Shown one piece after another: positions 27,467 to 47,022 of a stretch of DNA of 64,000 nt (positions are counted from its first letter, which is position 1; the number at the start of each line of letters is the position of its first letter). A model generated the notes under the pieces. That model saw only the letters and a program-made list of their open reading frames with translations. It made no database searches and was not told the DNA's origin. This stretch comes from a virus, in IMG/VR virus record IMGVR_UViG_3300037502_003155, positions 12,926 to 76,925 of that record. One strand, 5' to 3'. The translations under genes and the position numbers were made by a program.

Positions 27467-28555
27467 TTATGAACGAGTCCTTCTCATTTTTTCAGTCACC
27501 TCTCGCCCGAAGTAGGCTGATGTCACCGTTACATCGGGGATTCTCTCTAATCCGCCATGTTGGGCGAGGGCATCGGGGTTGATGTATTCCATCATGTCTC
27601 TGGTGTAAAACGCCCCATTGTTGGCGGCTACCTGTTCAGCCACCATGCCCAGATCGGTACGACTAGGCTTACCTGTTGCCGCGTTTTGCCGAGCAATGCC
27701 AATATCTTTAGGGGACTCAAAGGAACCGTCATCAAACCCGACCATCATTCGATGGAACTCCGCCTTGCCATCGGGGGCATAGACGGCATTCGTGACGGAT
27801 ACGGGTTGTCTCTCTCCCATCGACAGGGATTTCTTGAAGGTTTCTAGGCTATCTTCACTATTGGCGATAGCCTTGCGCTCTTCTTCCCCCGCATTCTCCC
27901 AGAATTGCCTAGCGGCCCCCTGGATATCCCCACGGGCAAGCGACTTCTTGAGCCGATTATAGCTTTCCGGCTGAGACAACAAAAAAGCAGAATCAAGCCC
28001 CTGTGTTGTACCGTCCGACATCACGGCATAGTATCGGGCCAGTTGGCCGCTATTTTGGCTGCGAATCATGTAGTTATCGCTATAGGCATCTTCCGCGTAA
28101 ACCTTGCGGTCTCCAAATGGCCCTTCTTCAATGAGGTATGGCGCGTCATTTTCTTTAAATGAGTCAGCGATGCGAGTGATCTTGGGTCGCTTTTCTGGAG
28201 GGGTTTCTAGCGATTCTTTTAGGGTTATGCGCTTTGTCTTAGCTGGTCTTTTAGGCTTTGTTTCAACGGGCTTAGGCTTCACATAAGGTTTCTGTCCCTT
28301 CGCAGCCTTAACCTCACTCTTTAACTTCGCCCGTTCTTTCGCTTTCTCTACTGTCTTCGCCTTGGCCTCTTTACTGGTCTGCGAAGCCTTATCCCGGCTG
28401 CATTTCTTCGTCCTGGGAATCCAACCCCGACCACAAGCAACGCCTTGGCCTCGTTGGTCTAGACGCATCCCGTCAGCATACCCTTGGATGAACTCCGGGG
28501 AAGCGTCCAACCTAAGGTCATACTGAAGCGCTAGAAGGTGATGGGATAAGGCCAT
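27467..28555 (-). CDS. RxD/FIQGY-leader protein (putative capsid cargo)
   Basis: N-terminal ~90 aa nearly identical to that of 29564..30931; unrelated C-terminus. Confidence 0.7.
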   Translation of the reverse strand: MALSHHLLALQYDLRLDASPEFIQGYADGMRLDQRGQGVACGRGWIPRTKKCSRDKASQTSKEAKAKTVEKAKERAKLKSEVKAAKGQKPYVKPKPVETKPKRPAKTKRITLKESLETPPEKRPKITRIADSFKENDAPYLIEEGPFGDRKVYAEDAYSDNYMIRSQNSGQLARYYAVMSDGTTQGLDSAFLLSQPESYNRLKKSLARGDIQGAARQFWENAGEEERKAIANSEDSLETFKKSLSMGERQPVSVTNAVYAPDGKAEFHRMMVGFDDGSFESPKDIGIARQNAATGKPSRTDLGMVAEQVAANNGAFYTRDMMEYINPDALAQHGGLERIPDVTVTSAYFGREVTEKMRRTRS

Positions 28556-28628
28556 GCTGCCAAGTTGAACTCATTAATTCCAATCCTGTCACCCTACCTC
28601 ACCTATACCCTCTATTTTGCGAAATCCG

Positions 28629-29561
28629 CTAACCTAGCCCCGACAGATACGACAATTCACCCAATGCACTAACCCCGGTGCCACCATCAGCCCCCGTCCC
28701 TCGTACCCATAGCGCACGGGCATAGGGCACACACACGGTCGCAATGTTTCGGGTCGCTAGCAGATCCCCGACCTGCACGGCAAAAACATCCCTCGCAGGC
28801 CGACACACAATGCCGAGATAGGTCAGTTCATCCACCACTTCGCCGCTGATGGCCGACAGGTCGAACGACACCAGCACCCCGGTCATCTCTGGTAATGACC
28901 CTTGCCAAACGCCCTCGATCTGCACCGATTGGAACGACCGGGGGCGGTAGGTTGTGCTGCCGTACAGCGTCACAATGTCGCCAACTTGCACCAATTCCCC
29001 GACCTGGGGACTGGCAGGGTTAGCGGCGGCGGTAAAGCTCAGTCCTTCACTCACTGCCCTCGCCACGGTGAAGGTATTGGCCCCAATAAAGTCGGCTAGA
29101 TCAATGGCATAGTTCAGGTTGTTATCGGGGGCCGGGGCTTGGGCCTCTACCGTTAGCTGCACCGTCACCTCATCGCCCGCCACGGTGCCCACGGGGGCAT
29201 AGAGGCTTAGCCCTTGGGTATCCGCCCATCCCATCAATGGCACGACACCAGGAATAGCGTTAGGGTCTGCCTTGAGGGTATAGAGTTGGCCCCCTAGCGC
29301 TACCCTTGCCACCGCTGACACCGTGTAGTTCTCGGCTTCGCTGAATGGCACCGTGAACAATCGGCCCGCATAGGTTGGGGCTGGCAGTGGCACCGATACC
29401 GCATCAAACCCAGGGCGCAACCCAAAGCCCCCGTAGGCACTCACCAGGGCGAACGGGGGCCGTACCTGGGGCGTGGTGATAGTTTGTACCCTGAGTAAAG
29501 GTGCCTTCGCCAATGGTGGCTCTGGGGTGGTGGGTAGGCTAGCGTTGGTGAGTAGGAGCAT
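28629..29561 (-). CDS. putative structural protein
   Basis: 310 aa, beta-rich; in the structural operon. Confidence 0.6.
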   Translation of the reverse strand: MLLLTNASLPTTPEPPLAKAPLLRVQTITTPQVRPPFALVSAYGGFGLRPGFDAVSVPLPAPTYAGRLFTVPFSEAENYTVSAVARVALGGQLYTLKADPNAIPGVVPLMGWADTQGLSLYAPVGTVAGDEVTVQLTVEAQAPAPDNNLNYAIDLADFIGANTFTVARAVSEGLSFTAAANPASPQVGELVQVGDIVTLYGSTTYRPRSFQSVQIEGVWQGSLPEMTGVLVSFDLSAISGEVVDELTYLGIVCRPARDVFAVQVGDLLATRNIATVCVPYARALWVRGTGADGGTGVSALGELSYLSGLG

Positions 29562-29563
29562 GG

Positions 29564-30931
29564 TTAGCCGTAAAGAGCTTCTGCTAGGGAGATGTCACTA
29601 GAGTCAAGCTTTACGCCATTTTTTGTCCAAGTCAGGAAATCGGCCAATGATTCACGTTCTTGACGAGCTAGCTTTTGTGGATTCCCACTCCAGTCAATCC
29701 CAGACTCAAGCAAAGCGGATGCGATGGCCCTAGCCTCTTTGCCGTTACTTGATGCCGTAATTTGCATTCCCGATGGAATATGGGTGATGCTATAACCCGT
29801 TCTCTTCCCAGCAGCATTCGGGTTTAAGTTGATATCTTTTAGCGGAACAATCGCCAAATCTCCCTCAACCTTGGCGTTAACTTTTTGACTGCCATTAAGG
29901 CCAACAATCTCAATTTCTTGGGATTTGAATTTCTTTCCTTCCATGGCGTCTTGAAAAAATTGCCTGCGTTCTTCCATTCCTGCCTTGGAACTAAGAGTCA
30001 TTGCCGTCATCCTTTTTGGCAGGAAGGCGTCAGAAAACTTTTCCATTTTTTCAGGATCGGCTGGCTTTGGATTTGAAAGCCCTGATGTTGCTTTCTTGGT
30101 GGCTGTCCTCCGTTGTTTCCGTTCTTCTTTGTATTTCTTATCAAATTCCTCTTGTGACGTTGTTTTTGATCGGGTTTTTCCTGGTTGTTGTTTTGATTGC
30201 CGTTTAGCCCGATTTTCCATGCCGACACGCTCAGACCCCTGAATATCAGACGGCATCGAAAAAGCTTTGCCAGATTTTTGAGATTCACGGGCCAGTCTTG
30301 CCGCTTTCTCCACCTGAAATGCAGCAGACCTAGGATTCCCTTTCGGGCCTCCTGATGCGCTCATGGTGCCCTTGACGTTTCGTTGCCAATTCTTAGCCCA
30401 CGAATTAGCCACTTCCATACCCGCAGCTTCCGCCTTGCCAACATCCCCCGTCTCGGCCAATGTACGGGAAAAGGTCAGCAAGGAATCACCCATCGACTCT
30501 AATTCAACATGACGGGCACCTATAGCGATTTCGCCTTGACGGGGCTTAGCGTTATTGGCTTCCTTTAGATATTCCGTGGCAACGTCCGTAACTCGCCTAG
30601 AAAACTCAGTATTGACCTTCTGAAGCTTAGCCGGATCTTGCTTAGGCTCTGGCTTTTCCTTATCCCGTGGCTTCTGCCCTTTCGCCGCCTTAACCTCGCC
30701 CTTGAGCTTCGCCCGTTCTCTAGCCTTCTCAGCCGTCCGTGCCTTAGCTTCTTTGGGTGTAGCCGTCGCCTTATCCCGCGAGCACTTCTTGCTCCTGGGA
30801 ATCCAACCCTTACCACAAGCCACCCCCTGACCACGCTGGTCGAGGCGCATTCCATCCACATACCCTTGGATAAAGGCTTCAGAAGCATCTAGCCGTAGCC
30901 CATACCGAAGCGCCAAAGAAACCGTAGACAT
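29564..30931 (-). CDS. RxD/FIQGY-leader protein (putative capsid cargo)
   Basis: LRLDASEAFIQGYVDGMRLDQRGQGVACGKGWIPRSKKC leader; basic body. Confidence 0.7.
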   Translation of the reverse strand: MSTVSLALRYGLRLDASEAFIQGYVDGMRLDQRGQGVACGKGWIPRSKKCSRDKATATPKEAKARTAEKARERAKLKGEVKAAKGQKPRDKEKPEPKQDPAKLQKVNTEFSRRVTDVATEYLKEANNAKPRQGEIAIGARHVELESMGDSLLTFSRTLAETGDVGKAEAAGMEVANSWAKNWQRNVKGTMSASGGPKGNPRSAAFQVEKAARLARESQKSGKAFSMPSDIQGSERVGMENRAKRQSKQQPGKTRSKTTSQEEFDKKYKEERKQRRTATKKATSGLSNPKPADPEKMEKFSDAFLPKRMTAMTLSSKAGMEERRQFFQDAMEGKKFKSQEIEIVGLNGSQKVNAKVEGDLAIVPLKDINLNPNAAGKRTGYSITHIPSGMQITASSNGKEARAIASALLESGIDWSGNPQKLARQERESLADFLTWTKNGVKLDSSDISLAEALYG

Positions 30932-30933
30932 CG

Positions 30934-31596
30934 TTAAGCCTCCATATTCAAAACTTCCACCAACACCCGATCCGGGTCACAGGTCAGCGACAGCACCTTA
31001 GCCACCGCTGCACACTCACAGCCCGCCAACCTCACATAGACCACATCATCCCCCCGCCGTGCCAACAAATGGGCGGTGACTGGCCCTAGCGGTTCCTCTG
31101 TGGTCACAATGGCTTGGCCGTACTGCACCCTTACCCTTAGCGCACGGTCGTATAGGTCGGGGCTACACTTTGCGGTGGCCCCCTTGCCCACATCAGGAAA
31201 CACCTGGATCGAGTTGGGGCCAGTGCCCAGCGTGGCCTCGGTCGCCTGAACCTGTTGCCCATCTACGCTCTTAGGCAGGGAGTAGGCCACAATCGTTGCG
31301 CTGGTCAGGTCTGCCGCTTCTAGGGTATAGCCCGTGCCCGATGGCCGTAGGGTGAGCAACCCAGGCCCACCCACGGCTTCAAACATCCCCACAAAGGGCA
31401 TTCCCGATACCTCCCACCGTCGCCCCTTCAGCAGCGCATCCCGTTCAGGGCATGGGTTAAGCTCTACCGTCAGCACATGGCCCGCCAACTTGGTTTTGCT
31501 GGGCTTGGCATAGACGGGCACCGCTAACCCCTGGAGGTCGCCTATGGGGTCAACCTCCAGCCATGTACGGTAGATGTGGGTTAGGGAGGGGAGCAT
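30934..31596 (-). CDS. hypothetical structural-region protein
   Basis: TAATG coupling. Confidence 0.6.
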   Translation of the reverse strand: MLPSLTHIYRTWLEVDPIGDLQGLAVPVYAKPSKTKLAGHVLTVELNPCPERDALLKGRRWEVSGMPFVGMFEAVGGPGLLTLRPSGTGYTLEAADLTSATIVAYSLPKSVDGQQVQATEATLGTGPNSIQVFPDVGKGATAKCSPDLYDRALRVRVQYGQAIVTTEEPLGPVTAHLLARRGDDVVYVRLAGCECAAVAKVLSLTCDPDRVLVEVLNMEA

Positions 31597-32285
31597 TACT
31601 CACCCTGAGCCGTCCGAATCGCATCCATCGTTTGAGGATGGGTAAACGATCCGCTGGTGGTATTGACAGCCGTAGGCGATGCCGCGCCATCAAAGAACGA
31701 AATCCCGGTAGCCTGTACGGTAAACTTCCGGTTGGCATCAATGTCGGGGGCAATGGTCAACTGCGCCAACTTGCGTACCTTGCCACTCCCACTAGCGGCG
31801 GTCGTCGTCGTTCGAGAAATGGCATTCGATACTGCACTGCCATTTGACAAAGACAAGCAGGTAACGGTACAGGTAAACGCGCCCGTCGTGCCAGGGGTAA
31901 CACCCGTCACAACCACGGTATTTTCTACGCCTGTTCCACCCTGTACCGCCATTACGTCAGGGTGTAGGTTAATCAATTCAGCCAGGGCAGCCGCTACATC
32001 ATCTTCGGTCGGGGTCTCGCTGGAATCAAAGAACCAGGAAAAAACCCGCGCCGCCCCCGTGGGGCCATCAATGCTCACCTGGTAATGGGCATCAGCCACG
32101 GGCAGGTTAGCCTGAGAAACGGTGATGGTCTCTACCTGTGGTTCGCTGGTCGCATCCAAATTTACCCAGTGCTCTACCCGTACATTGGCACCCCCGGCAA
32201 TGGGCACCACACGGGCTTCGACCTCCAACGACACCGAGGACGTGGACGTGGTAATAGCGGTATAGGTTAAGTCAGCAATACTCAT
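31596..32285 (-). CDS. putative virion protein
   Basis: T/A/V-rich; preceded by a late box. Confidence 0.6.
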   Translation of the reverse strand: MSIADLTYTAITTSTSSVSLEVEARVVPIAGGANVRVEHWVNLDATSEPQVETITVSQANLPVADAHYQVSIDGPTGAARVFSWFFDSSETPTEDDVAAALAELINLHPDVMAVQGGTGVENTVVVTGVTPGTTGAFTCTVTCLSLSNGSAVSNAISRTTTTAASGSGKVRKLAQLTIAPDIDANRKFTVQATGISFFDGAASPTAVNTTSGSFTHPQTMDAIRTAQGE

Positions 32286-32364
32286 GGGGAACCCCTAAAA
32301 CAAGTGGTGTGATCACGTTGCTACAGTGACAGGGCTAAGGCACGATAGGCGACAGTTTGCGGAA

Positions 32365-32811
32365 TTAGCTAAACAACCCTGCCAATGACCTCAATTCCCT
32401 TTCCAGCACCGGCCCCGTCACCCTACACAGTCGATTGCGGGGGCAACGCCCCAACCCACAGGAAAATGTAGCCCGGTCATTCACCATGGCTTGGTGCTGC
32501 GCCCGTTTCTCGCTAGAAAGCCGTCGGGTAAGCTTCCCAGGGTTAGGCACCGTCAGGCTATGGGCCAACATCGGCTGTACCGCACCGATCTGACGATAGG
32601 ACAAGGTATTCCCTCGCCATTCAAAGCCGTAGACCACCCCATCTAGCCCCTTGAACCAACCCCGAAACCAGCGCTCAGCCCCCAGTTGCTCTGCCTGGAA
32701 TGACACCTGTTGGATGCCATCGGTAAACCCGTGGCGGGCCAGGGCTTGGTATACCTTCAACCGGGCTTGCCCCTGCTGTCGGCGTTGGTAAAGGGTGGGG
32801 AGGATGGCCAC
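32365..32811 (-). CDS. hypothetical protein
   Basis: GTG start overlapping the upstream stop codon. Confidence 0.5.
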   Translation of the reverse strand: MAILPTLYQRRQQGQARLKVYQALARHGFTDGIQQVSFQAEQLGAERWFRGWFKGLDGVVYGFEWRGNTLSYRQIGAVQPMLAHSLTVPNPGKLTRRLSSEKRAQHQAMVNDRATFSCGLGRCPRNRLCRVTGPVLERELRSLAGLFS

Positions 32812-33269
32812 TAAGAACGCCCCCGTCGTCTCAACACCATTGACCAATGCAGTTGACTCTGTTCTTCCACCTCCACTCCCGGCACCAGGTCGCAGAGGAT
32901 GCCTCCAAACGATTCAATCAACCCTTGGTCTAGCCGTTCTGAAACCAAGGCCGATAGTTGGTCTGCCGTTAGCCCCACCACATAGAATTTGCCCCTGCCG
33001 TGGATTTGGTCGAGGGCGTAGGCTTTGCTAATCCCCTGCACTTGGAGATCGTCAAGCTCGACCTCTACCCCCTGAATGCCCTCGTACCGCTGCACCAGTC
33101 GAGGGGAAATCAGATCAATCGCTGGGTTAGGGCAGATGGTCAGCCAGGAAAAGCCCTCGGTGCGGTCGCCAATGGTTAGCACGCGGTTAGTCGGCAAGCC
33201 ATAGCTACTGGCATGGTGGGCAGCGGCGTCCCTGGATGACTGGAATAGGGCGGTGAGGTTGATGGCCAT
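32811..33269 (-). CDS. putative head closure/neck protein
   Basis: Follows the DUF4054-like adaptor; coupled. Confidence 0.5.
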   Translation of the reverse strand: MAINLTALFQSSRDAAAHHASSYGLPTNRVLTIGDRTEGFSWLTICPNPAIDLISPRLVQRYEGIQGVEVELDDLQVQGISKAYALDQIHGRGKFYVVGLTADQLSALVSERLDQGLIESFGGILCDLVPGVEVEEQSQLHWSMVLRRRGRS

Positions 33270-33613
33270 TAGAACGCAAACCCTAAACGTTTAGGCAATG
33301 TCCGGCGCAAGCGCTTAAACTGCTGTCCGTACAAGGTCTGGGAAAGGTCATCCTCTCCACCGGGGGCATTTACACTGGCTTGCCCTTGCGCCACACTCTG
33401 AGCCGTTGCTGCACTCATCGCCTGCTGTAGCCGCTGACACTCAAGGGTATGCGCCGTCAACAACTTTACCCCTCGTTCCCGTATCGTGGCCACATCCCAC
33501 ACCGTTGCAGGGCATTGAAGCTCAGCAATGGCAAGGGCTTCTGAGATTTGGCCCTCAGTGAACCCGTCAAAGTCTGGGTAGGCCGTCTTGAATTGGGCAA
33601 CGGTGATCGCCAT
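33269..33613 (-). CDS. DUF4054-like head-tail adaptor
   Basis: ITVAQFKTAYPDF...LLTAH...LSQTLYGQQF. Confidence 0.8.
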   Translation of the reverse strand: MAITVAQFKTAYPDFDGFTEGQISEALAIAELQCPATVWDVATIRERGVKLLTAHTLECQRLQQAMSAATAQSVAQGQASVNAPGGEDDLSQTLYGQQFKRLRRTLPKRLGFAF

Positions 33614-33680
33614 GGCATCCTCAACGCTCATCCCACGGTGCCACGGGGGAACGACGTTGATTTAGGCTTTGCGAAATGCG

Positions 33681-34004
33681 CTAATTCAGCCAGCCAGGGG
33701 TAAACCGGGTCTGCCCCACCCTAAACTTGCGGCGTCCCGTGGCCCACACCACGCCGCTGCCTACCGCTTGTACCTCGTATTCCCCGGTTGTTTGGGGCAC
33801 GATGGTAAACCGATAGACCCCCGTGGCCGTCTTGGTCACTTCAGCGTTAGTGCCATAGACAAAGTTGCTTTGCTGCCCATTGGGGTTGATCAAGGCAAAC
33901 CCGACCTTCTCTGGGTCGGTAAGAACTTCATCCTCATCGCGGAACTCGCCCGTGTAGATGATGGCCGTCCCTGGTTCAACAAGGGTCGTCGTTTCCTGGT
34001 TCAC
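33681..34004 (-). CDS. small Ig-like virion accessory protein
   Basis: TATGVYRF...GEYEV pattern shared with the 61-62 kb genes. Confidence 0.6.
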   Translation of the reverse strand: MNQETTTLVEPGTAIIYTGEFRDEDEVLTDPEKVGFALINPNGQQSNFVYGTNAEVTKTATGVYRFTIVPQTTGEYEVQAVGSGVVWATGRRKFRVGQTRFTPGWLN

Positions 34005-34251
34005 TTCGGTAAAGCCTCATGGAATGGGTAGCGGTGGTTAGGCCGAGCAAGGGCTCTGAGGGATGCAGAATCACAGCATGGGGCAACACGCTAAGCCCAG
34101 GAGATGGCATCGCTAGCCGCTCCAACGACAGACGATGCGTGGCGGCATTGAGCGTATGCACCCACAGCGGGGGCCGCTCAACACGACGGGAGGAAGGGTT
34201 TAAACCCAGCGGGCTGAGATTTCCTTTTAGGCCAAGCGGGAAGAGGGCCAT
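33976..34251 (-). CDS. hypothetical protein (paralog of 59662..59952)
   Basis: MALFPLGLKGNLSPLGLNP versus MTLYPLGLHTNLSPLGLNP. Confidence 0.55.
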   Translation of the reverse strand: MALFPLGLKGNLSPLGLNPSSRRVERPPLWVHTLNAATHRLSLERLAMPSPGLSVLPHAVILHPSEPLLGLTTATHSMRLYRSEPGNDDPC

Positions 34252-34310
34252 GACTCTACAAAACTCACCCCACCATCTTACCAAGGCCACCCATAGCCTC
34301 CACTGCCAAT

Positions 34311-37754: not shown

Positions 37755-38327
37755 CTATCGGTAGAGGTTGGCCCGTGCTGAACTACGACCTTTTACAGCC
37801 CTAGTCTTTCTTACCTTGCCCCCTTCAATCTTGACCGTCTGCCGTTGCAATCGTTTCGGGGTGTTTGCACGACTTCCCCATAGTGCTTGCTGCTTTGCTT
37901 TCTTAGCCTCACGGGTAGCCTTCTGCTTTGCAATGGTTTCAGGGCTGCGTTGCCGCTTAGCCTTCTGCGGTGCAGGAGAGTTATCACCACCCTCAAACGG
38001 GTTAGCCATTTCCACTCCAAAGAACTCCTCCTCTTGAGGTGCGGGCTGTGGTCTTTGAGCCCTTCTTGCGGCCTGTTGCGCCATCGCATTCCGCTTACCT
38101 GTGGCCACTCGTGCCTTAGCCCCGGCATCACCCGCTTTCAGATCTGCGGCAAGCTGTCGCGATCCTTTAGCGCTACATTTCTTCCCTGGGGCAATAAACC
38201 CCCGACCGCAGGGCTTTCCTTGGCCCTTAGCATCGAGACGCATTCCATCGGCATAGCCCTGAACAAAGTCTTCGGGGGCATTGAGGGGCAGTCCATAATG
38301 CGCTGCCCACGCTTGTGTTGAATACAT
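37755..38327 (-). CDS. RxD/FVQGY-leader basic protein (putative capsid cargo)
   Basis: YGLPLNAPEDFVQGYADGMRLDAKGQGKPCGRGFIAPGKKC; directly after the major capsid gene. Confidence 0.7.
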   Translation of the reverse strand: MYSTQAWAAHYGLPLNAPEDFVQGYADGMRLDAKGQGKPCGRGFIAPGKKCSAKGSRQLAADLKAGDAGAKARVATGKRNAMAQQAARRAQRPQPAPQEEEFFGVEMANPFEGGDNSPAPQKAKRQRSPETIAKQKATREAKKAKQQALWGSRANTPKRLQRQTVKIEGGKVRKTRAVKGRSSARANLYR

Positions 38328-39311: not shown

Positions 39312-39367
39312 AATTTGTCTCCAGAACAGGGGAATAAAACGTGGTTACGCAGGGGCTAGGCCGAAAC

Positions 39368-40219
39368 CTAGTTCAAGAACAGCGCAACCTTCACGACAAA
39401 GCCCCCGTTCGGGTCGGCTGTCGCAGGTTCAACGATTTTCACACCCGTAGGTAGGGCGAGGTTGCTGGTGCTGGTGGCCGTCACAACGCCTAGGGTGGTG
39501 TTGCAATCGATGTAGGCCGTAGTGGTCGGCAGGATGCTGCCAGAATCACACTTCACCCACACCCCACCACCGGGGGCGGTGCGGTCGATGACGTCCATCA
39601 CATCGTTAGCGGCGTACTGGGCAGCCGCCGTATTGCCAACAGCGCCCCGCTCAATGGCATGGGTCGGGGCGATGGCCACCCCAGCCACCGTCACGTTGCT
39701 GGCAGTAGCAGGCAGTCGGGCTTCGTTGAACGAATCCACGGTGCCAGAGGTAGAGCGAACCACGAAACGCCCAAAAGGCACCGCAGTTGAACCCGATGCC
39801 GCCACCGTTTGAGTGAGGGTGAGGTCATTAGTCGTGGTGGCATTGGTCGGGCTAGTGACCGTGTAGCCCACGTTGGGTGTCAACGCCCGCAACGTGATGA
39901 CGTTGGACGCTTCACTGACGGCAAAGTATTGGCTAAGGTCGCTAGCCTGAATCGCCGCCAGAAGGCCCGCCGTTAGCTCGGCGCGGGTTGCACTGCCATC
40001 GGTGGTAAACGAAGCCACGATGGCCGCAGGGATAGCCCCACCGACGACCGAGATCGAGTAGGTGCCGCTATTGTCTACCGTGGCTGGGGTGGTGACCGTC
40101 CAAGTGTTCTGGGCATCCAGGGCAGAGTTAATCATGGCGCGTACGCCCATATCCCCTAGGCCATCGACTTGACCGGGGAACGCCTTAGCGCTGGTTTGGC
40201 TGTAGTTGGTTTGTGACAT
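39368..40219 (-). CDS. capsid decoration/cement protein
   Basis: MSQTNYS...AFPGQ start and VPFGRFVV; between the scaffold and MCP genes. Confidence 0.7.
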   Translation of the reverse strand: MSQTNYSQTSAKAFPGQVDGLGDMGVRAMINSALDAQNTWTVTTPATVDNSGTYSISVVGGAIPAAIVASFTTDGSATRAELTAGLLAAIQASDLSQYFAVSEASNVITLRALTPNVGYTVTSPTNATTTNDLTLTQTVAASGSTAVPFGRFVVRSTSGTVDSFNEARLPATASNVTVAGVAIAPTHAIERGAVGNTAAAQYAANDVMDVIDRTAPGGGVWVKCDSGSILPTTTAYIDCNTTLGVVTATSTSNLALPTGVKIVEPATADPNGGFVVKVALFLN

Positions 40220-40267
40220 GGCTGAAAAATCCTCAAAACAGGGAGCTAGTTAGCTGAAATCAAGCGC

Positions 40268-41830
40268 CTAGCGACGTTTGCCGTAGTTGTCTTTGTTGGC
40301 CGTCAACGGGGTAGCAAAATTGTTCATCCGCCGTTCCCGATCTGCCGCACCCGCATCCATGGCACGGCCACTGGTAGCGGTGCCCAGCACGAGGCTCAAC
40401 TCATCGGCATAGCCAGAGTCAGAACGACGGCTAGGGGCGCTGTGTTGGCCCATGGCGTCGTCAACAATGGCGTCGTAGAGGGCTTGGATGTAGGGATCGC
40501 TGGCATCGTCCCGGTACAGGTTGGGGCGCTTTTGCTCGACCACAAAGCGGCGAATGTCGGCAGCATCGTCGATGGCATCCATCCGCAGATCGGAGAAGTC
40601 AACGCCAATGGCCTCAGCTTCGCGAATAACTTTGACCATTTCGACAGCATCAGACCGGACAGAATCCTTCTTAGATTTCATGTCCTTTTTGGTCTTCTTA
40701 GACTTGGCGGGGGCGGGCATCTCGTCCTCGTCCTCGTCCATATACTCTTCGTCTTCGTAGTCTTCGTCCTCGTAGTCTTCCATATCATCCATGTCTTCGA
40801 CGTATTCCTCGTCTTCCTCCATGTCCTCTAGGAAGGCAGGCATCTTGCCTTTTTTCTTGCCCTTGCCATCTAGGCGCACATAGCTATCGCCACGCCATGC
40901 AATGTCGGCATCCTCTAGCAACGATTCGGCCTGGTCTAGGCGGTCACGCAGGGCTTCGATCATGCCGTCCTTGTACTGAACTTGCCCTTGAACATCGCCT
41001 AGGGCCGATTCGGCGCTATCAGCGCGATCCTCAGCCTCTTCTAGCTCAGCCTCAAGACTGTTGACGGCAGAGTCATTGCGGGCCAGTAGGGGAGAGATGG
41101 TGTTGAAAACATCTTGGGGCACCTGAACGGAGCCACCAGGAAGATTCAAAGTTGCCAAAGGCATATATCCGTTGGTACTCATGGTTTCCTCTTGGGTAAA
41201 CAGATTGGAGTATGGTGGCTCCTGTGCTTTAACCTGATAAGCCAGGTCGTTTTCTTCCAAATCAGCGCTATCAAAGCGACCTAACACCTTCACCGAGGGG
41301 CCTGCTCGACCCATCCGAGTAAGGGCAATGTGGTTTACCTTGATGTCTCGCTGAATGGCGTCGTAGCGTTCGCTTTGGCCTGTGGCAGGGTTAAACCACA
41401 CCCCAGAGGTTTCCTCGATTCGGCACTTATAGCCCGCGCTAATTTCGGAGGCATCCCCGCGATGCACCGCATCCTGGGCATCGCGGCTCATCACCGCAAT
41501 TTGCCCCGTTACAAAACCACCCTTCCCAGGCACAACGACGTACCGAGGGGTTTGCAACGAAATGCCCTTTCGCAGCCGATCACCGTTCGACTCATCGACT
41601 AACCCCGTGGGATGTTCGAGGGTTAGCGAGGCTAAGCCAAATTCGGCAATGGACTTTTGGTTCTCCTCAGGGGGCCGAAATTCGCGCCGTGTTTTGCCGC
41701 CCGGAGCTTTATACTCCAGTACCCCATCCCGGGCAAAGATGGCATCACACAACAAAATCCCGTCATCAGTACGATGCGGGTTCAGAACTTGGCCGCTATC
41801 AAATCGAATCGCCAAAGGAACACTAGCCAA
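40268..41830 (-). CDS. DUF2213 prohead protease/scaffold
   Basis: ARDGVLEY, LTLEHP, EISAGY and QRDIKVNHIAL..GRAG; coiled-coil and acidic C-terminus. Confidence 0.85.
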   Translation of the reverse strand: MASVPLAIRFDSGQVLNPHRTDDGILLCDAIFARDGVLEYKAPGGKTRREFRPPEENQKSIAEFGLASLTLEHPTGLVDESNGDRLRKGISLQTPRYVVVPGKGGFVTGQIAVMSRDAQDAVHRGDASEISAGYKCRIEETSGVWFNPATGQSERYDAIQRDIKVNHIALTRMGRAGPSVKVLGRFDSADLEENDLAYQVKAQEPPYSNLFTQEETMSTNGYMPLATLNLPGGSVQVPQDVFNTISPLLARNDSAVNSLEAELEEAEDRADSAESALGDVQGQVQYKDGMIEALRDRLDQAESLLEDADIAWRGDSYVRLDGKGKKKGKMPAFLEDMEEDEEYVEDMDDMEDYEDEDYEDEEYMDEDEDEMPAPAKSKKTKKDMKSKKDSVRSDAVEMVKVIREAEAIGVDFSDLRMDAIDDAADIRRFVVEQKRPNLYRDDASDPYIQALYDAIVDDAMGQHSAPSRRSDSGYADELSLVLGTATSGRAMDAGAADRERRMNNFATPLTANKDNYGKRR

Positions 41831-41902
41831 ACGCTATTAGCGCTACTTTGACAAAGGGCTTTCTAAATTGGATAAAATTAGCGAAATACGCAAAATCGGG
41901 AT

Positions 41903-42346
41903 ATGCCACTAACCCGCGAAGAAGAATTAGGGATTATCAGAAACAAGTTGGTGCGACTCGGAATCCTCACCGATACCGATACCGCCCACAACCTTGCACT
42001 CCTAGAAAGCCACCTGGTACGAGCATTGGCTGAGCACAATGAGAAGATCAACCCCTACGAACGGGTCGGCAAAATCCTGCGCCACCATCGGGAACAACGC
42101 CTACAGATGCCTCGACACATTGCGGTAGCGAGGGCAAACCGTATCCTCCATTCATTGGGAGACCAAGGCATCTGTCATCAATCTGCCCTCTGCCACATGG
42201 AGGCAGGCACCCAGCGGATCTACTACCTCCAAGCCTTGGCCCTCGCTGATGTCTACGGCATTCCCTACGACGGTCTACTCCCCCCAGGCTACGACCCTGA
42301 GCTAGGACTGACGGATTGGGACGACGCCGCACCAGACCTAGGCTAG
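41903..42346 (+). CDS. XRE-family HTH regulator (candidate late activator)
   Basis: VGKILRHHRE...QSALCHMEAG...LALADVYGI; a late box lies immediately upstream. Confidence 0.7.
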   Translation: MPLTREEELGIIRNKLVRLGILTDTDTAHNLALLESHLVRALAEHNEKINPYERVGKILRHHREQRLQMPRHIAVARANRILHSLGDQGICHQSALCHMEAGTQRIYYLQALALADVYGIPYDGLLPPGYDPELGLTDWDDAAPDLG

Positions 42347-42397
42347 GCAACACCACACGATGACACAGCCCCGACCAGGGGCTTTTCTTTTGCCTTG

Positions 42398-43045
42398 AGT
42401 CAGTCAGCACTGTCAGCACTGTCAGCAAAACCCTGACAGACCACCTTAACCCCGCAGTCCGTGGAAAACTCTTTGTGTACTGTATACAATCCCTCTATAT
42501 ATAGATATAGATAAATCTTCTAATAGATTTTTATTTATCTATCTCCATTGGTGGGGGTAGATTTAGGGGGATTTGTCAGTAAAAAAATAGTTTTGTCAGT
42601 GCCTAGTCAGTGAATTGTCAGTAAAGGTGTTTAAGAAAGAATCCTTATATATCAATGCTTTCAGGTTTTTGGTAGGGGATTTGTCAACAAGTCAGTGAAT
42701 TTTGAGGGTTAGCGCAGAAAACTATAGAGGCCACAAAAATACCCCCTGAGGAAAACCTAGGGGGTGATGGAGGTATCTAGTGCGTTTTTGAAATATACCC
42801 CTAGGTTTTTACTGACTTGCTGACTCGTCCTGCTCAAACCCTTGATATATAAGGATTCTTGGTACTGACTAGCCACTGACTAATCACTGACTAGTCACTG
42901 ACAAATCCCTTTTTTACTGACAAATCTCTTTTTGCTTTGAAGCGTGAAGCCCTTACAGTATAAGGTTTCTGGGCAACGATGGGGATAAAGTTTGATGCGT
43001 TTTAGCCAAGTCAGCGTTTTACTGACACATCTCCTGGCTGACTGG
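42398..43045. repeat. iteron-rich non-coding element, copy 3 (inverted)
   Basis: Begins with tgtgtactgtatacaat...tatagatatagataaat, the reverse complement of the end of copy 2. Confidence 0.8.
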
Positions 43046-43056
43046 CAGCGCCCTCG

Positions 43057-43488
43057 CTACCCTCGCAGGTAGTCCGCCATGATTTGCTCAATCTCGGCTC
43101 GGTCTTCATCGGATAGCCCGATGAACTCCCGCTTAACCTGCCCCTGGCCGTTCTGGTGGTAGGTCATGTAGGCCAGCGGCGTCCCCACTGACACGCTAAA
43201 CCGATTGGCCTGGTAGTTGATGGAGGCCCGACCCGTCCCGGTGTCCTGGAGAATCTTGTCAATGCGCCCCTTGGCTCGTTTGATGGCACGGGTTCGGGGG
43301 CTAATGTCTTCCCAGTGCACCCCCATGGGGTCTACTTCTTTCTCAAAGCGTTCATCGGTGCTGAGTAGTAGTGCTTCCCCGATCTCTCTCATGGGGGCTG
43401 AGAACCCCCGCAGACGCAACAATATGCCCACGATGTAGCGGCGTAGGTCTTTGTCTAGGTAGGAGATGGATAGGAGTGGTTTGGCCAT
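43057..43488 (-). CDS. phage virion morphogenesis protein (Mu gpG/P2 S-like)
   Basis: MREIGE...RFEKEVDP.G..W, KILQDTG, VGTPLAY..YHQ.G and REFIGLS. Confidence 0.85.
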   Translation of the reverse strand: MAKPLLSISYLDKDLRRYIVGILLRLRGFSAPMREIGEALLLSTDERFEKEVDPMGVHWEDISPRTRAIKRAKGRIDKILQDTGTGRASINYQANRFSVSVGTPLAYMTYHQNGQGQVKREFIGLSDEDRAEIEQIMADYLRG

Positions 43489-43617
43489 TAGGTGACGGCC
43501 CCCGATGGAATACCTGGATCATAGTCTTCGACCTGGCTATCCCCTACGCTCTCCGGTTGCCAGCCGTTGAGCATAAACAGGGCATAGTCAAGGTCTATAG
43601 CGGTGGTGCGCTCCACA

Positions 43618-45366
43618 TCAAAGGTATGGCCAAAGGCACCGGTAGCCTTGGAGGGAGGAGTCGGTGCGGTTGGGTTTCTTTTGTTGGCGCTTGAAATGCT
43701 GTAGTTGAGTAAATAGCGAGTTGCCCCAAAAGCTTCCTTCGCCGCCTAATATTTTGTCCGCCGCAGCAATTCGCGCCATCACCGTCCCCTTCCCTACCTG
43801 AAGGTTTGTGGCGATCTGCTGAGCGCTAAGACCTTGTGCTGTCAGTCCTAGTACGTCTTTGTTGAGAATGTCTTTGGCAAACTCTTTTAATTCGCCAACC
43901 TGCTTATCTGTAAAAGGAAAAGCATTCTCTTTCACCCTCGCCTTCTGCCCCTTAGCCTCTTTCACCGCCCGCTTAAGCTCAGCCCTAGCCTTAGACTTTT
44001 CAACGGTGCGATCCAAAGCGGCTCTAGGGGTTTGCCTAGCTTTCTCTGGGCTGCATTGCTTCCCCCTAGGAATCCAGCCATTTCCACACGCTACCCCTTG
44101 CCCCCGTTGGTCAAAGCGGTTGTGCATCACATCTAGGTAGCCTTGAAGGAAGGCATCAGCACGGGTATTCTTCGCTTCCTGGGCCTTCCATAGTTGATCC
44201 ATAATCCAGTTGTAAGGCCGTTCCCCGTTGGCGTCCTCTGTGCCAATGGTCTGCATTGTCTTAAGGGTCTTTCTTAACTCTGGATGCGAAGCCGCTAACA
44301 ACGTCCGTTCTCTGCGTTCAAGCTCATCCCTAGAATATCCGTCTGAGGCTTGGTCAAGTTCAGCTTCAGGATCCCATTTGGTGTATTTGTTGAACGCTTT
44401 GCGTGCATCAGGGTTAGCCGCAACTTGCTTTAAGTCGTCCCGTGCATCGTCATACCCTGCCAATTCCTTAGGAGAGTATTCAAACAACTCCATCACTTCA
44501 TCAAAGTCGCCTGAGTCAATGCCCTTCAACTGTTGAGCGAGATCCTTAGCCTTAGGAAAAGCTTCAACCTGGCTCAAGTCGCCGCTTTCTATGGCAACCC
44601 TCAGCACTTCTTTGGCCGCATAGGGGTCATCGCCAAATGCCGCATATTGATCGGCTAGCCGTAGCGCATTCTGGGTCTTAGCTAGGTCTTTCTTGACACT
44701 AGCAGCGGACGTTTCCGTTGCTAGCTCTAATACTTCCTCTGGCTCATCCAACTGCATCAGATCAGACAGAAATGCCTGGGTATCCTCAGTGGGGGTATAG
44801 GGGTAATCCCGCTCATCTGGTTCCTGCCCTGCCCCCGTTGATTCCCATTGCTCTAGGTCTTTTTCGTAGCGCTCATAGTTAGGATCGGCCAAGACCTTTT
44901 TAACGTCGGCTTTTGCTAGTGTCTCCCCAGGATTATTCACCCGGCACACATAGGCTTGGCTGATATGACTACCGCCACACTTTTGCCCCCGTGCTGCCTC
45001 CCCCTGGTCAAACCGCCATACCCCATGTTGGTTCAACGCTTCCAGGATAGTTTCAAACTCAATGACTCCCCCCTGCTGGTAGCGCTTGCGAATATCCCGC
45101 AGCAGTGCCGATAGCTCAGGGCGCATATCCGCCGATTCTTCCGCCGCCTCATGGAGGTGCCCTATCGCCAATAGCTTGTGCTCTGGGTAACCTGCCTCAG
45201 CTTCCCCCATTAGCACCAGGGCAGCGCCAAGGTGTTTCTCCACGCACTCCATGCAGGATGGCCGTACCGAGTCCATCCGCATCGTATCGGCATACCCCCA
45301 CACAAACTCCGGGGGCGTATCCAGTGGCAACCCATATCGGGACGCAAGCACAACAGTAGACGGCAT
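43618..45366 (-). CDS. multi-module RxD/GY-leader protein (putative cargo polyprotein)
   Basis: Leader motifs recur at the N-terminus, internally and at the C-terminus; the last module is HTH-like. Confidence 0.7.
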   Translation of the reverse strand: MPSTVVLASRYGLPLDTPPEFVWGYADTMRMDSVRPSCMECVEKHLGAALVLMGEAEAGYPEHKLLAIGHLHEAAEESADMRPELSALLRDIRKRYQQGGVIEFETILEALNQHGVWRFDQGEAARGQKCGGSHISQAYVCRVNNPGETLAKADVKKVLADPNYERYEKDLEQWESTGAGQEPDERDYPYTPTEDTQAFLSDLMQLDEPEEVLELATETSAASVKKDLAKTQNALRLADQYAAFGDDPYAAKEVLRVAIESGDLSQVEAFPKAKDLAQQLKGIDSGDFDEVMELFEYSPKELAGYDDARDDLKQVAANPDARKAFNKYTKWDPEAELDQASDGYSRDELERRERTLLAASHPELRKTLKTMQTIGTEDANGERPYNWIMDQLWKAQEAKNTRADAFLQGYLDVMHNRFDQRGQGVACGNGWIPRGKQCSPEKARQTPRAALDRTVEKSKARAELKRAVKEAKGQKARVKENAFPFTDKQVGELKEFAKDILNKDVLGLTAQGLSAQQIATNLQVGKGTVMARIAAADKILGGEGSFWGNSLFTQLQHFKRQQKKPNRTDSSLQGYRCLWPYL

Positions 45367-45436
45367 GGGACATTCCGCGAAACTGTCACCAGTCTGCCAA
45401 GGGTGCGGGGGCATGGCTTAGCGTTTGCGGAATGCG

Positions 45437-46639
45437 CTAAAACAGTTTGCTCAAGAACCCTTGCAAGTTCGGCTCATACTTTTTGATGGCCTCGTTCAGA
45501 TAGGTCTGCCGATCTCGGCTACCGTAGGGGGTTTCCGCATTGAACGGTGTGTCAAAACCCTTTTCAAAGATGGTTTTGGGGTCGGGTGGGTCGGTTAGGA
45601 TTTCGATGCCCTTGCGTTTGGCCCCGTCTTCAGACATAGAGAAGATGGCACAGCGACACCCCCAGCCAGCCGGAACTCTGCCCGCCCTCCAGAATGGGTC
45701 ATCGGCATAGATCGCTTTGTTGTGCAGCGCTTTGTGGTGGTCACGGGGCTGGGGCGAATCACGCCACCGCCAGACCCACAGCGGGCGACGCACCAACACC
45801 GATGGTTCCCGCATCTGCTGATACCGTCCGGCCCCCATGGCCCCCCTGAAGTTGGTATCAAAGATTGTCCAGATGTGGCGGGGGTTGGCAGGTTTCCAGC
45901 CCTTGCGGCCAATCAACCTAGACCACGACTTTTCAAAGTCAGCAAAGCTCATCCCCTCGGTAACGGCCTGTTCCACCAACCACTTCGCAGCCTTAATCAG
46001 GTCAGCCTGGGCCATCCTTGCCACCACAAAGGCCCAATCGTGAAAGTCTGCGGTAAGTTGCTGGTAGGTCTCCGCTGGTAGCGCTACCTTAGCCCTGAAA
46101 TAATCCACGGCCTCCTTGAACGGCAACTTAAGCCATGCGGGCTTAGCCCTGCCATCAAAGCGCACCCCGTCGCCATCGTCGCCCTCATCTAGCACCTGTT
46201 CCCGCCCTGCCAAGTTAGCCAGCACCATGCCCTGGTAAACCTCCCGCTCTAGGCCACGGTAGGGCAGTCGAGTAAACAATTCCCCCGGTTGCATGGAGAT
46301 GCGTTGTAGGGCCGCTTTCATGTCCCCTTGCGCCAGAATCCAGGCTAGAGTACGTTTCTGCCATTGCTCCATGATGGGCTTCACATGAGCCAAGCTACGT
46401 TCCCTCAGCCATCGGCCAAGGGCATCGGGGTCATCCCCGGCATCGTGGCGCAGGTCATCCCCTAGCCAGCCATCGCGGCGTAGCTTGGCCCCCGTCATCG
46501 ACTCCACCGCAAACAGGGCCAAGGCTCGGCCCTCGGCTACCAGTGCCGATTCATCGAGGGAGTCTAGGCGGGTGGGGGTGATTCTGGGGTCAGCAATGCC
46601 GATGAGAGCGGCGTAAAATTCAGCTTCGGTTAGGTTCAT
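45437..46639 (-). CDS. MuF/SPP1 gp7-like minor head protein
   Basis: LPFKEAVDYFRAK, AFVVA, TIFDTN...GRYQQM and H...DDPFW...PAGWGCRC. Confidence 0.9.
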   Translation of the reverse strand: MNLTEAEFYAALIGIADPRITPTRLDSLDESALVAEGRALALFAVESMTGAKLRRDGWLGDDLRHDAGDDPDALGRWLRERSLAHVKPIMEQWQKRTLAWILAQGDMKAALQRISMQPGELFTRLPYRGLEREVYQGMVLANLAGREQVLDEGDDGDGVRFDGRAKPAWLKLPFKEAVDYFRAKVALPAETYQQLTADFHDWAFVVARMAQADLIKAAKWLVEQAVTEGMSFADFEKSWSRLIGRKGWKPANPRHIWTIFDTNFRGAMGAGRYQQMREPSVLVRRPLWVWRWRDSPQPRDHHKALHNKAIYADDPFWRAGRVPAGWGCRCAIFSMSEDGAKRKGIEILTDPPDPKTIFEKGFDTPFNAETPYGSRDRQTYLNEAIKKYEPNLQGFLSKLF

Positions 46640-47022
46640 GGGCGCGTCACCTTCATACTTAATCCATCCTGATACCCCTGCAAAAATGCGCTATCAGGCC
46701 GATACCGTTCCTTTTGGCGGTTGGCCCTAGCCAATATCCCTTGCACATCCTTGTAGTTTTTAGGCACCTTCTCACCCCATCTGCGAAACTGCATGGCGGC
46801 GGGTGTGGGCATTCCCTTGTCATCCACCAACGGATCTTTACGGCTGAGGATCTGCGCGGCCTTTCGACTGTTGAACTTAGCCCGATCCCACTTATCGCCA
46901 TCACTGGCCCCTGTGGCCTTCCGCACGGGCTTACGCACCGCACCGCTGCCCTCGTTATACTGGGCCATCTTGCGATTGGTGCGACGGTCGTAGGCGGCGT
47001 AATGTTCGGCTAGGGTGGTCAT
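46636..47022 (-). CDS. small basic protein with a C-terminal RPDSAFLQGY motif
   Basis: Coupled between the portal and MuF genes. Confidence 0.65.
   Translation of the reverse strand: MTTLAEHYAAYDRRTNRKMAQYNEGSGAVRKPVRKATGASDGDKWDRAKFNSRKAAQILSRKDPLVDDKGMPTPAAMQFRRWGEKVPKNYKDVQGILARANRQKERYRPDSAFLQGYQDGLSMKVTRP

Follow-up and report, generated by a model that had tools for sequence, protein, structure and literature searches.

Five late genes with a common module

The window, a 64,000-nucleotide stretch of a virus record (IMGVR_UViG_3300037502_003155, positions 12,926 to 76,925), carries five genes whose products share a conserved module. All five are located on the minus strand, and the plus-strand translations in these places are riddled with stops. 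Gene 1 (27467..28555; 362 aa, pI 9.35) opens with the module (aa 1-90, 28286-28555), which contains an FIQGY motif (28478-28492), RLD at aa 15 and 31, and a cysteine "knuckle" (CGRGWIPRTKKC, 28400-28435) followed by a basic helix (aa 53-90); the body of the protein matched no known family in profile searches. Gene 2 (29564..30931; 455 aa, pI 9.88) also begins with the module (aa 1-88, 30662-30931; FIQGY 30860-30874, knuckle 30782-30817), and its C-terminal body is homologous to ORF065R of phage PaV-LD (E 5e-7). In gene 3 (37755..38327; 190 aa, pI 10.7), FVQGY (38253-38267) and a knuckle (CGRGFIAPGKKC, 38175-38210) were located by sequence scan.

Gene 4 (43618..45366) encodes 582 aa from the ATG at 45366. 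Its reading frame is open to 45414, but the start is most likely at 45366, since 45414 lies 9 nt past the end of a late box and the consensus of the orthologs opens with MPST..LA..YGL. After the N-terminal FVWGY-RMD (45292-45306) comes a four-helix domain (aa 39-121, 45004-45252), and a divergent knuckle (CGGSHISQAYVC, 44944-44979) is found only further along. A second, full FLQGY-RFD-knuckle-basic module lies at aa 403-476 (43939-44160; FLQGY 44137-44151, knuckle 44053-44088), and RTDSSLQGY (43642-43668) and a weak helix-turn-helix (HTH) are found at the C-terminus. The first-pass annotation had claimed an RxD followed by a CGxxxI module for four genes, which holds for genes 1, 2 and 3 and in part for gene 4. 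Gene 5 (46636..47022; 128 aa, pI 10.3) ends as stated there, with the C-terminus ...RPDSAFLQGYQDGLSMKVTRP; the FLQGY motif of this terminal segment (RPDSAFLQGYQDG...) is located at 46672-46686. A sister genome, 85-99% identical, encodes an ortholog of 323 aa that continues with RLD, a knuckle and a body of approximately 170 aa, so that gene 5 of the window is a truncated form, cut after FLQGY and before the RxD and knuckle.

The common leader motif on these five late genes is real. In a six-frame regular-expression scan of the window, F[IVL][QW]GY matched six times (shuffle mean 0.06), [RPK]x[DN]..FxQGY five times (0.02) and CGxG[WFY]I..C four times (0.02), all in frame in the five genes. The leaders of genes 1 and 2 are 78% identical at the protein level, while a four-way DNA alignment of the leader copies gave a mean column identity of 66% with many synonymous differences; the similarity is thus kept at the protein level and does not reflect a recent DNA duplication. 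The C-terminal bodies, as the first-pass annotation had also noted, are unrelated to one another (best BLASTP E 0.21), and no effector domain was recognised in the module proteins of the window by profile searches against, among others, Pfam-A, PHROGs v4 and NCBIfam 20. Four of the five proteins are basic (pI 9.4-10.7, compared to a late-gene median of 5.4).

The module genes are late genes that accompany a head block of portal (PF06381), MuF, DUF2213 and PF09950 genes. The late box TTAGCGnATTyCGCAAA occurs 12 times in the window (0.09 expected), which bears out the earlier proposal of late-box-driven units. Copies on the minus strand lie immediately upstream of gene 1 (TTAGCGGATTTCGCAAA, 28616..28632) and gene 4 (45424..45440), and further minus-strand copies head the unit containing gene 2 (32356..32372) and the portal-gene 5-MuF unit (48742..48758). 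A palindromic box (41878..41894) heads the unit of scaffold, cement, major capsid protein (MCP) and gene 3, the last gene of this unit, and has a plus-strand ORF on its other side. Genes 3, 4 and 5 are located inside the head block, gene 5 between the genes for the portal protein (PF06381, equal to DUF1073; 47019..48695) and the Mu F-like minor head protein (PF04233; 45437..46639). The block further comprises the DUF2213 prohead protease/scaffold protein (40268..41830, 520 aa) and the MCP (PF09950; 38400..39311), all on the minus strand. Genes 1 and 2 are found in the distal late region, on either side of a homolog of ORF_031, a virion protein of the isolate CL131, and adjoin a homolog of CL131 ORF_032, likewise in this region.

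Architecture and relatives of the module

What had been described as a leader consists of three parts that are separable, namely the FxQGY helix, a two-Cys beta-hairpin (the knuckle) together with an R-x-D, and a basic helix. The conserved unit covers approximately 90 aa and not approximately 50. F-x-Q-G-Y is carried by a short amphipathic helix, which in the leaders at the N-termini of genes 1 and 2 has R-x-D on both flanks; in an AF2 model (pLDDT 79.5 for the gene 2 module), both leader RLD sites fall in predicted coil, one ahead of this helix and one behind it. The basic helix after the knuckle (net +7/+8) is present in genes 1, 2 and 4. A simple N-terminal leader is ruled out, as the module is also internal, in tandem (up to five copies) or fused to portals in relatives.

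The Cys knuckle is the widespread core of the module. PaV-LD ORF080R and ORF081R begin directly at the knuckle and lack the FxQGY part, which therefore cannot be the sole incorporation signal. In relatives, the knuckle has four cysteines (C-x5-6-CG-x2-C-I-x5-C), whereas the copies in the window have two only (C-x10-C), with G/R and W at the first and third positions. Judged from this pattern, the window form is a degenerate version of the four-Cys knuckle. Zinc knuckles and zinc ribbons, defined by four Cys/His ligands in two knuckles, were considered as a class, but the window copies have only two cysteines. An [RK]xD was found at most 16 aa upstream in 82% of 109 knuckles (background 16.5%), and 7 residues was the most frequent spacing.

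No match to the module was obtained at E<=0.1 in Pfam-A, PHROGs v4 or NCBIfam 20, so that the match to a characterised domain by which the first-pass annotation would have been refuted was not seen. Structure and literature searches returned neither a solved structure nor a published description. Among 1.84 billion representatives, 81 matched at E<=1e-3, in tiny metagenomic clusters. The diversity of fused bodies anticipated earlier was found: among 60 representatives, the bodies fall into 29 BLAST clusters, and the domains fused to the module in relatives comprise ART, kinases, InPase, NUDIX, DnaJ, GNAT, esterase and portal. Such domains are typical of head-packaged polyvalent proteins (PMC5512222) and count for a virion-cargo reading. 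As to the expected co-occurrence with head genes, the PF06381 portal was present in 7/7 genomes with context. In the distant relatives L001, L002 and L008 the module protein is portal-fused, encoded directly downstream of the portal or, for the InPase protein of L001, three genes downstream. The same knuckle is N-terminal in a stand-alone ART gene of L001 and lies at aa ~1127 of a portal-ART fusion in L008, upstream of the ART domain (aa 1268-1373).

Seven knuckle genes were found in PaV-LD and four in CL131, all in late regions (reversed-pattern control, 0). Most of them are located between the head-completion genes and the tape-measure gene, those of CL131 just upstream of the latter. Hydrophobic TM-like segments come after the knuckles of CL131 ORF_048 and P0007. 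The "type B" module of gene 3 (GQGKPCGRGFI...LAADLKAGD) is 71% identical to a module in L001, while the L001 portal is only 27% identical. Conservation of the module so far above that of the portals is more easily reconciled with a conserved ligand (DNA, for example) or with horizontal transfer than with a module that co-evolves with a docking partner specific to each phage. In the sister genome, cassette gain, loss, truncation and permutation are confined to the module genes, and the permutation falls at module boundaries. The module is a real, rare and conserved family, and the genes that it marks are hypervariable within a late region that is itself conserved.

Proteolytic motif and candidate roles

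The four knuckle-bearing proteins of CL131 (ORF_044, 045, 047 and 048) all appear in its virion LC-MS/MS list, with ORF_048 scoring highest (105 peptides; PMC6293099 Table S5); this list reports presence in the virion and does not tell head from tail. In the DUF2213 scaffold of the window, RxD is the top-enriched gapped dipeptide (14 sites, mostly R-x-D-[A/S], compared to 4.3 expected; z 5.2-5.4). It also ranks first in the PaV-LD scaffold (15 compared to 4.1, z 5.5-5.9), and is enriched in that of S-CBS4 and, as KxD, in Rogue1, weakly in CL131 and not in two other DUF2213 scaffolds examined. The leader itself showed no significant likeness to scaffold segments (iE 0.15). At the MCP N-termini, [RK]xD|A is conserved (RKDD|AIPG in the window, RLD|ADEIG in PaV-LD, RMD|APTIG in CL131). 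The sequenced N-terminus of the mature MCP of the T1-like phage TLS, ASDMGIW (PMC11447400), comes right after K-N-D, the equivalent in Rogue1 being K-A-D|A; TLS provides a single experimentally mapped cleavage in a distant phage, and the DUF2213 protease (PF09979) belongs to its relative Rogue1, while the MCPs of both are PF09950, the same families as in the window. Scaffold enrichment and the TLS capsid N-terminus thus indirectly support a match between the invariant R-x-D of the module and the cleavage motif of the DUF2213 protease family. The DUF2213 protein would be both enzyme and substrate, its own sites defining the motif used in the module. PaV-LD ORF080R and ORF081R resemble pre-cleaved forms.

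On these grounds we lean towards accessory virion proteins as the products of the five genes, most likely internal head or ejection proteins, with the composite module acting as an assembly-and-maturation cassette. The proteins, made late, would enter the procapsid, with the scaffold core or the portal/MuF vertex as the possible docking site of the FxQGY helix, the knuckle or both. The prohead protease might then cut after [R/K]-x-D and remove the FxQGY peptide, a step suggested by the motif and with experimental support only in TLS; in polyprotein relatives, the same cuts would separate the units. The mature protein would start at the knuckle and basic helix, which, given pI values of 9.4-10.7, may hold it on packaged DNA; a point against is the acidic gene 4 product (pI 5.3). 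The protein would leave with the DNA at infection, as suggested by the effector-type domains that accompany the module in relatives. The capsid-targeting or maturation tag on swappable cargo first proposed for this locus is consistent with the late and head context, the CL131 virion list, the protease-like RxD and the diverse bodies, though not in its form as a simply N-terminal leader. Taken together, the comparative data suggest that the module labels exchangeable proteins which enter the particle of a freshwater cyanophage and are trimmed by its head protease.

A more far-reaching version, which we regard as tentative and rather less probable, is a portable encapsidation-and-processing tag, defined by its sequence, across the cyanophage clade. 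Here, an FxQGY docking helix would be excised by DUF2213 at the flanking [R/K]-x-D, leaving a (once metal-binding) knuckle and basic helix as the mature N-terminus that rides the DNA into the host.

Placement in or on the tail (for example alongside the tape-measure protein in the lumen, or at the baseplate), with a structural, uncleaved R-x-D, appears unlikely. The position of most CL131 and PaV-LD knuckle genes ahead of the tape-measure gene, the distal location of genes 1 and 2 around the ORF_031 and ORF_032 homologs, and the TM-like segments, as in membrane-inserting tail or ejection proteins, would suit it. However, the knuckle is portal-fused or within the portal-MuF block in L001, L002 and L008, genes 3, 4 and 5 are inside the head block, R-x-D matches the inferred specificity of a head protease acting inside proheads, and cytoplasm-directed enzyme domains (ART, kinase, InPase, NUDIX) suit injected cargo.

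Similarly improbable is a functional domain with no targeting role, a small knuckle with basic helix that binds nucleic acid, metal or membranes, is needed in the host and is shared because the genes diversify by recombination at a conserved 5' segment. The high cross-phage conservation relative to structural genes, the four-Cys ancestral form suggestive of metal binding, the strong basic helix and cassette permutation at module boundaries agree with such a domain, but it would leave unexplained why R-x-D keeps so strictly to a spacing of 7 residues and matches the scaffold/MCP motif, why the module is confined to late structural operons and portal fusions, and why R-x-D stands on both flanks of the FxQGY helix. 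For the retained knuckle part, it is compatible with the internal head or ejection protein reading.

An N-terminal anchor that is conserved among receptor-binding proteins (tail fibres or spikes) while their specificity domains are exchanged would reproduce the classic pattern of constant N-terminus, variable C-termini and cassette exchange and the distal position of genes 1 and 2, but is very improbable given small, basic, mostly helical or low-confidence predicted proteins, modules that are internal, in tandem and on portals, genes 3-5 in the head block, and fused domains (ART, kinase, InPase, esterase and similar) of intracellular type, none receptor-binding or depolymerase-like.

If accessory virion proteins are indeed encoded here, the module would show how a bloom-associated freshwater cyanophage clade (PaV-LD, CL131 and uncultured relatives) loads a fast-changing protein set, in relatives including ADP-ribosyltransferases, kinases and esterases, into the particle. 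[R/K]-x-D followed by Ala or Ser would then be a simple, testable cleavage rule for DUF2213 prohead proteases, which occur in hundreds of sequenced phages, T1-like coliphages included. Should the tag prove portable, it would provide the first defined cleavage code for this widespread family and a natural plug-in system by which these phages swap injected effectors. In metagenomes, the module flags virion accessory genes that are otherwise unrecognisable.

Comparison with known systems

T1-like phages (TLS, Rogue1) share the capsid family PF09950 and the protease family DUF2213, the latter shown for Rogue1, and the mature TLS capsid N-terminus after K-N-D matches the [R/K]-x-D|A sites of module, scaffold and MCP. 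Only capsid cleavage is documented there, however, and the T1-like head loci examined contained neither a knuckle nor an FxQGY module, apart from one raw six-frame pattern match in the Rogue1 locus. Phage polyvalent proteins (Iyer, Burroughs, Anand, de Souza, Aravind 2017) are multi-domain proteins predicted to be packaged and injected (PMC5512222). Module proteins of relatives are likewise multi-domain, with InPase, ART, kinase, GNAT, NUDIX and MuF or portal links, and several effector or enzymatic domains combined with MuF or portal linkage were seen in P0006, P0007, L008 proteins and CL131 ORF_048. Polyvalent proteins have 2-15 known domains, whereas those of the window mostly consist of the module and one body of no known family. 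Neither a Pfam LPD nor any other model recognises the module, and the terms cysteine motif, knuckle and linker do not occur in that paper (PMC5512222).

In SPN3US-type giant phages, several head or ejection proteins are made with N-terminal propeptides, which have the AXE motif in common as their cleavage site and are proposed to target the prohead (PMC7411985). These propeptides are 111-130 aa long and, in the part of that account used here, not described as a conserved module shared by unrelated bodies; the protease is T4-like and not DUF2213. A close parallel is the T4 capsid targeting sequence (CTS), with which a likeness in concept had been proposed from the start. It is a short N-terminal element common to the internal proteins IPI-III and Alt, which are diverse, often basic and ejected; the prohead protease cuts it off at a simple consensus, of which the scaffold also contains many copies, and among related phages the cargo genes are hypervariable (PMC3012670, PMC7411985). 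In the window, too, an N-terminal module is shared by unrelated bodies. In contrast to the CTS, the module, known here from sequence, is also internal or tandem in polyproteins of relatives and on portals; it is composite, approximately 50-90 aa long, and its predicted knuckle and basic helix would stay on the mature protein. The motif is unrelated ([R/K]-x-D), and the protease family is a different one (DUF2213, not gp21-like). By these features the module appears to be an analogue of the T4 CTS and not a member, and, as has been done with the CTS, it might serve to load proteins of choice into such capsids.

Sequence and genomic setting of the module

The five genes under study (gene 1, 27467-28555; gene 2, 29564-30931; gene 3, 37755-38327; gene 4, 43618-45366; gene 5, 46636-47022) were given correct coordinates in the first-pass annotation. 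All five are encoded on the minus strand, and a plus-strand translation at these coordinates was ruled out, being full of stops. The shared motif claimed for these genes was recovered in a six-frame scan of the window, in which F-[IVL]-[QW]-G-Y was found six times (0.06 in shuffled sequence) and CG-x-G-[WFY]-I-x(3-6)-C four times (0.02), all matches being in frame within the five genes. The conserved unit spans approximately 90 amino acids in genes 1, 2 and 4 and is shorter in gene 3. Since the modules of genes 1 and 2 share 78% protein identity, while the DNA of the leader copies averages only 66% identity per column in a four-way alignment, with many synonymous differences, the similarity is kept at the protein level. 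With local HMMs, the unit was split into three separable parts, namely the FxQGY segment, a cysteine knuckle (R-x-D..GQGxxCGxG[WF]I-x5-C) and a K/A/E-rich basic helix with a net charge of +7 or +8. An AlphaFold2 model of the module (46-row alignment, mean pLDDT 79.5) comprises a helix (3-9), a coil with the first RLD, the FxQGY helix (18-27), a coil with the second RLD, a beta-hairpin formed by the knuckle (37-44) and a long basic helix (60-84). Foldseek found no neighbours for this model in PDB (best E 1.8) or BFVD (best E 0.5). The remaining parts of the proteins (bodies) are mutually unrelated, as had been proposed (best pairwise E 0.21), and neither a PDB sequence search nor the protein atlas gave any result for them.

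Gene 4, for which 45366 is the most likely start, carries the N-terminal FVWGY-RMD described before; the knuckle is not directly attached to it, because a four-helix domain comes next. A divergent knuckle, CGGSHISQAYVC, is located approximately 100 aa beyond FVWGY-RMD, and a second complete module at aa 403-476. A wide VIA-align search with the gene 4 model retrieved generic four-helix bundles only (Z<=11.1, under the noise level stated by the tool for helical proteins). The C-terminal region (43618-43900), modelled with low pLDDT, gave weak helix-turn-helix signals, all below curated cut-offs (GerE/LuxR, E 0.004; HTH_23, 0.006; phrog_3855, 0.008; PedR-like, 0.09), and is possibly a putative DNA-binding cargo domain. 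At the extreme C-terminus (...NRTDSSLQGYRCLWPYL, 43642-43668), one more R-x-D precedes a QGY motif, which looks like a further module that has been cut off. Gene 4 showed no similarity to ORF064R, the 'transcriptional regulator' found at the corresponding place in Planktothrix phage PaV-LD, and a relationship to it was rejected.

The source record is a 76.9-kb IMG/VR virus (approximately 91% complete) with a Mu-like head block in its late region. In order of transcription, the block encodes TerL, the portal (PF06381), gene 5, the Mu F-like minor head protein MuF (PF04233), gene 4, a Mu-G-like morphogenesis protein, the DUF2213 protease/scaffold, a cement protein, the PF09950 capsid protein and gene 3, followed by smaller virion genes, gene 2, a 310-aa protein, gene 1 and large distal proteins. 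Genes 3, 4 and 5 are in the head block, and genes 1 and 2 further along the late region. The late box (TTAGCGnATTyCGCAAA) is real, with 12 matches versus 0.09 expected; copies are found immediately ahead of genes 1 and 4, and others lead the units to which genes 2, 3 and 5 belong. The copy at 41878-41894 is a near-perfect palindrome flanked by the scaffold gene (minus strand) and an ORF on the plus strand (41903-42346), and may thus act in both directions. Another plus-strand ORF (49249-53391, 1380 aa), located between the terminase and portal genes, has its own late-box-like site (49181-49197) and only weak SbcC-like and SHOCT matches. Judged by the capsid protein, the nearest isolates are PaV-LD (37%) and Aphanizomenon phage CL131 (30%), both of which are clearly syntenic with the window.

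Distribution, fused domains and variability

The module defines a real but small family. When 1.84 billion representatives were searched exhaustively with a profile, only 81 proteins matched at E<=1e-3, ranging from 57 to 1853 aa, and the clusters looked up among the module representatives were all tiny and metagenomic. In roughly 25 representatives the protein begins with the complete tripartite leader, in line with its first description; an exclusively N-terminal position did not hold, since local HMMs placed the knuckle in others alone, internally or in up to three copies. In a check on the diversity of fused domains, suggested earlier, 60 N-terminal-leader proteins were assigned to 29 body clusters. 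DnaJ, InPase, protein kinases, portal, histidine phosphatase, LRAT, NUDIX and ADP-ribosyltransferase domains were found fused to the module. The same repertoire has been described for head-packaged polyvalent proteins, in a paper that mentions no Cys motif at all (PMC5512222).

Pfam, PHROG and NCBIfam models did not match the module in the five window proteins or in relatives with four cysteines. The window region and gene 2 were unmatched in 50,697 phage records (megablast, tblastn), and the knuckle pattern yielded no confirmed relatives across 185,579 species genomes. A knuckle-like DNA match in Pseudomonas phage DL60 does not lie in frame and was attributed to chance. As the knuckle was not found in S-CBS4, Nodularia phage 2AV2 and a PB1-like phage, it is restricted to a subset of the phages having this head type. 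The head locus of phage Rogue1 (L028) contains one six-frame match to a generalized knuckle pattern, counted without regard to frame.

The module is linked to portal genes as well as to late operons, and the expected co-occurrence with the head module was observed as a PF06381 portal in all seven genomes checked. In one locus of a distant relative (L002), terminase and portal are followed by a 1168-aa protein with knuckle, TM segment and kinase, and by MuF. In a second (L001), the portal itself has a knuckle in its C-terminal extension (aa ~509), followed by an ART gene with an N-terminal knuckle, a 385-aa ORF and an 854-aa InPase protein with three knuckles. A third (L008) encodes a portal-ART fusion with a knuckle (aa ~1127) upstream of the ART domain (aa 1268-1373), and next to it a 1633-aa GNAT protein that contains a complete module internally. 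The stand-alone ART gene and the portal-ART fusion share the same knuckle; they form a Rosetta-stone pair, with the knuckle marking the N-terminal end of the cargo unit, portal-fused or not. In the 'portal' ORF_012 of CL131 (L010, 8800-12981; 1393 aa), portal, InPase-like region and MuF are fused, so that the window portal, gene 5 and MuF have a single polypeptide as their counterpart in CL131.

Four-cysteine knuckles (C-x6-CG-x2-C-I-x5-C) occur in seven late genes of PaV-LD, 14-139 aa from the N-terminus and in three of the seven preceded by W-E-x-F-S-x-G-[YF]-x-[YF]-R-x-D-A, and in four genes of CL131. All strict-pattern matches in the two phages are on the late-region coding strand (reversed-pattern control, 0). 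The two-cysteine knuckle of the window matches this form, with G/R in place of Cys1 and W in place of Cys3. Module-carrying relatives are present in virions: ORF_044, 045, 047 and 048 of CL131 are all included in the LC-MS/MS list of purified virions, ORF_048 with the top score (105 peptides, 54.6% coverage; PMC6293099 Table S5). This 1811-aa protein (L011, 9706-15141) has five knuckles approximately 290-335 aa apart, TM-like segments after some of them and Pfam alpha/beta-hydrolase (esterase/lipase-type) matches at three positions, and looks like a putative polyprotein of membrane-directed enzymes. In PaV-LD, ORF065R is homologous to the gene 2 body (E 5e-7), and ORF080R and 081R, which begin directly at the knuckle, resemble pre-cleaved forms. 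The PaV-LD knuckle protein ORF079R (L012, 2750-4525), annotated merely as hypothetical, has ADP-ribosyltransferase matches (PF01129, PF03496).

The module marks hypervariable genes. Synteny with the window was found in the metagenomic contig JACCEC013122205.1, whose core proteins are 85-99% identical to those of the window, and it is the leader-bearing genes that vary between the two. The gene 5 ortholog (323 aa) runs on into RLD, knuckle and body, which indicates a truncation of gene 5 in the window. In the counterpart of gene 4 the same domains are arranged in a permuted order, and the gene 3 ortholog retains the leader (89% over 82 aa) with a different body. Two additional leader genes are inserted between genes adjacent in the window, and the gene 2 ortholog occupies the position of gene 1, the body of which was not found within the stretch of the contig examined.

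R-x-D sites and the DUF2213 protease

An [R/K]-x-D is located up to 16 aa upstream in 82% of 109 non-redundant knuckles, versus 16.5% of background windows, with a modal spacing of 7 residues and most often A or Q after the D. RxD is the most enriched gapped dipeptide in the DUF2213 protease/scaffold of the window (14 vs 4.3) and, independently, in that of PaV-LD (15 vs 4.1), the sites in both being mostly R-x-D-[A/S]. Saturation of all head proteins with RxD was ruled out, the enrichment being restricted to the scaffold, with a slight excess in module proteins and 22 observed versus ~26 expected in the rest; the other late proteins show no enrichment. That the enrichment tracks the presence of the module was also rejected, since the DUF2213 scaffolds of the module-less S-CBS4 (gp022, 7 vs 1.9) and T1-like Rogue1 (gp19, KxD, 12 vs 3.5) are enriched as well; a Rhizobium and a Vibrio DUF2213 scaffold are not. 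The strong excess in gp022 and gp19 points to a cleavage code that would be general within part of the protease family. Mimicry of scaffold segments by the leader was discarded: the scaffold is the best non-family match to the leader profile, but not a significant one (iE 0.15).

For the T1-like phage TLS, the mature capsid N-terminus ASDMGIW was obtained by N-terminal sequencing (PMC11447400), and K-N-D directly precedes it in the capsid sequence. The mature Rogue1 capsid starts with Ala (PMC11447400), and its sequence reads K-A-D followed by AAGIW. The Rogue1 protease (DUF2213) and both capsid proteins (PF09950) belong to the same families as those of the window. The window, PaV-LD and CL131 capsid proteins each have [R/K]-x-D followed by A at residues 9-11. 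From the scaffold enrichment, the mature N-termini and these capsid sites, we infer that [R/K]-x-D followed by Ala/Ser is a cleavage motif of the DUF2213 protease family and that the R-x-D sites of the module serve in maturation. Genes 1 and 2 have one such site on either side of the FxQGY helix; a protein cut there would begin with the knuckle in its mature form.

Role of the module

A simple docking tag is difficult to reconcile with a cross-phage conservation of the module (71% to L001) far above that of the portals (27%), with the lack of FxQGY in some family members and with the tape-measure gene adjoining many knuckle genes in CL131 and PaV-LD. The module is best read as a cassette for assembly and maturation that accessory virion proteins carry. 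These proteins would be cleaved at R-x-D and are probably located in the capsid rather than the tail; FxQGY or the knuckle may have a targeting role, the basic part may associate with DNA, and the proteins might finally be delivered to the host. The T4 capsid targeting sequence and the SPN3US-type propeptides (PMC7411985) are analogues of such a cassette, although the module is built from different parts than either.
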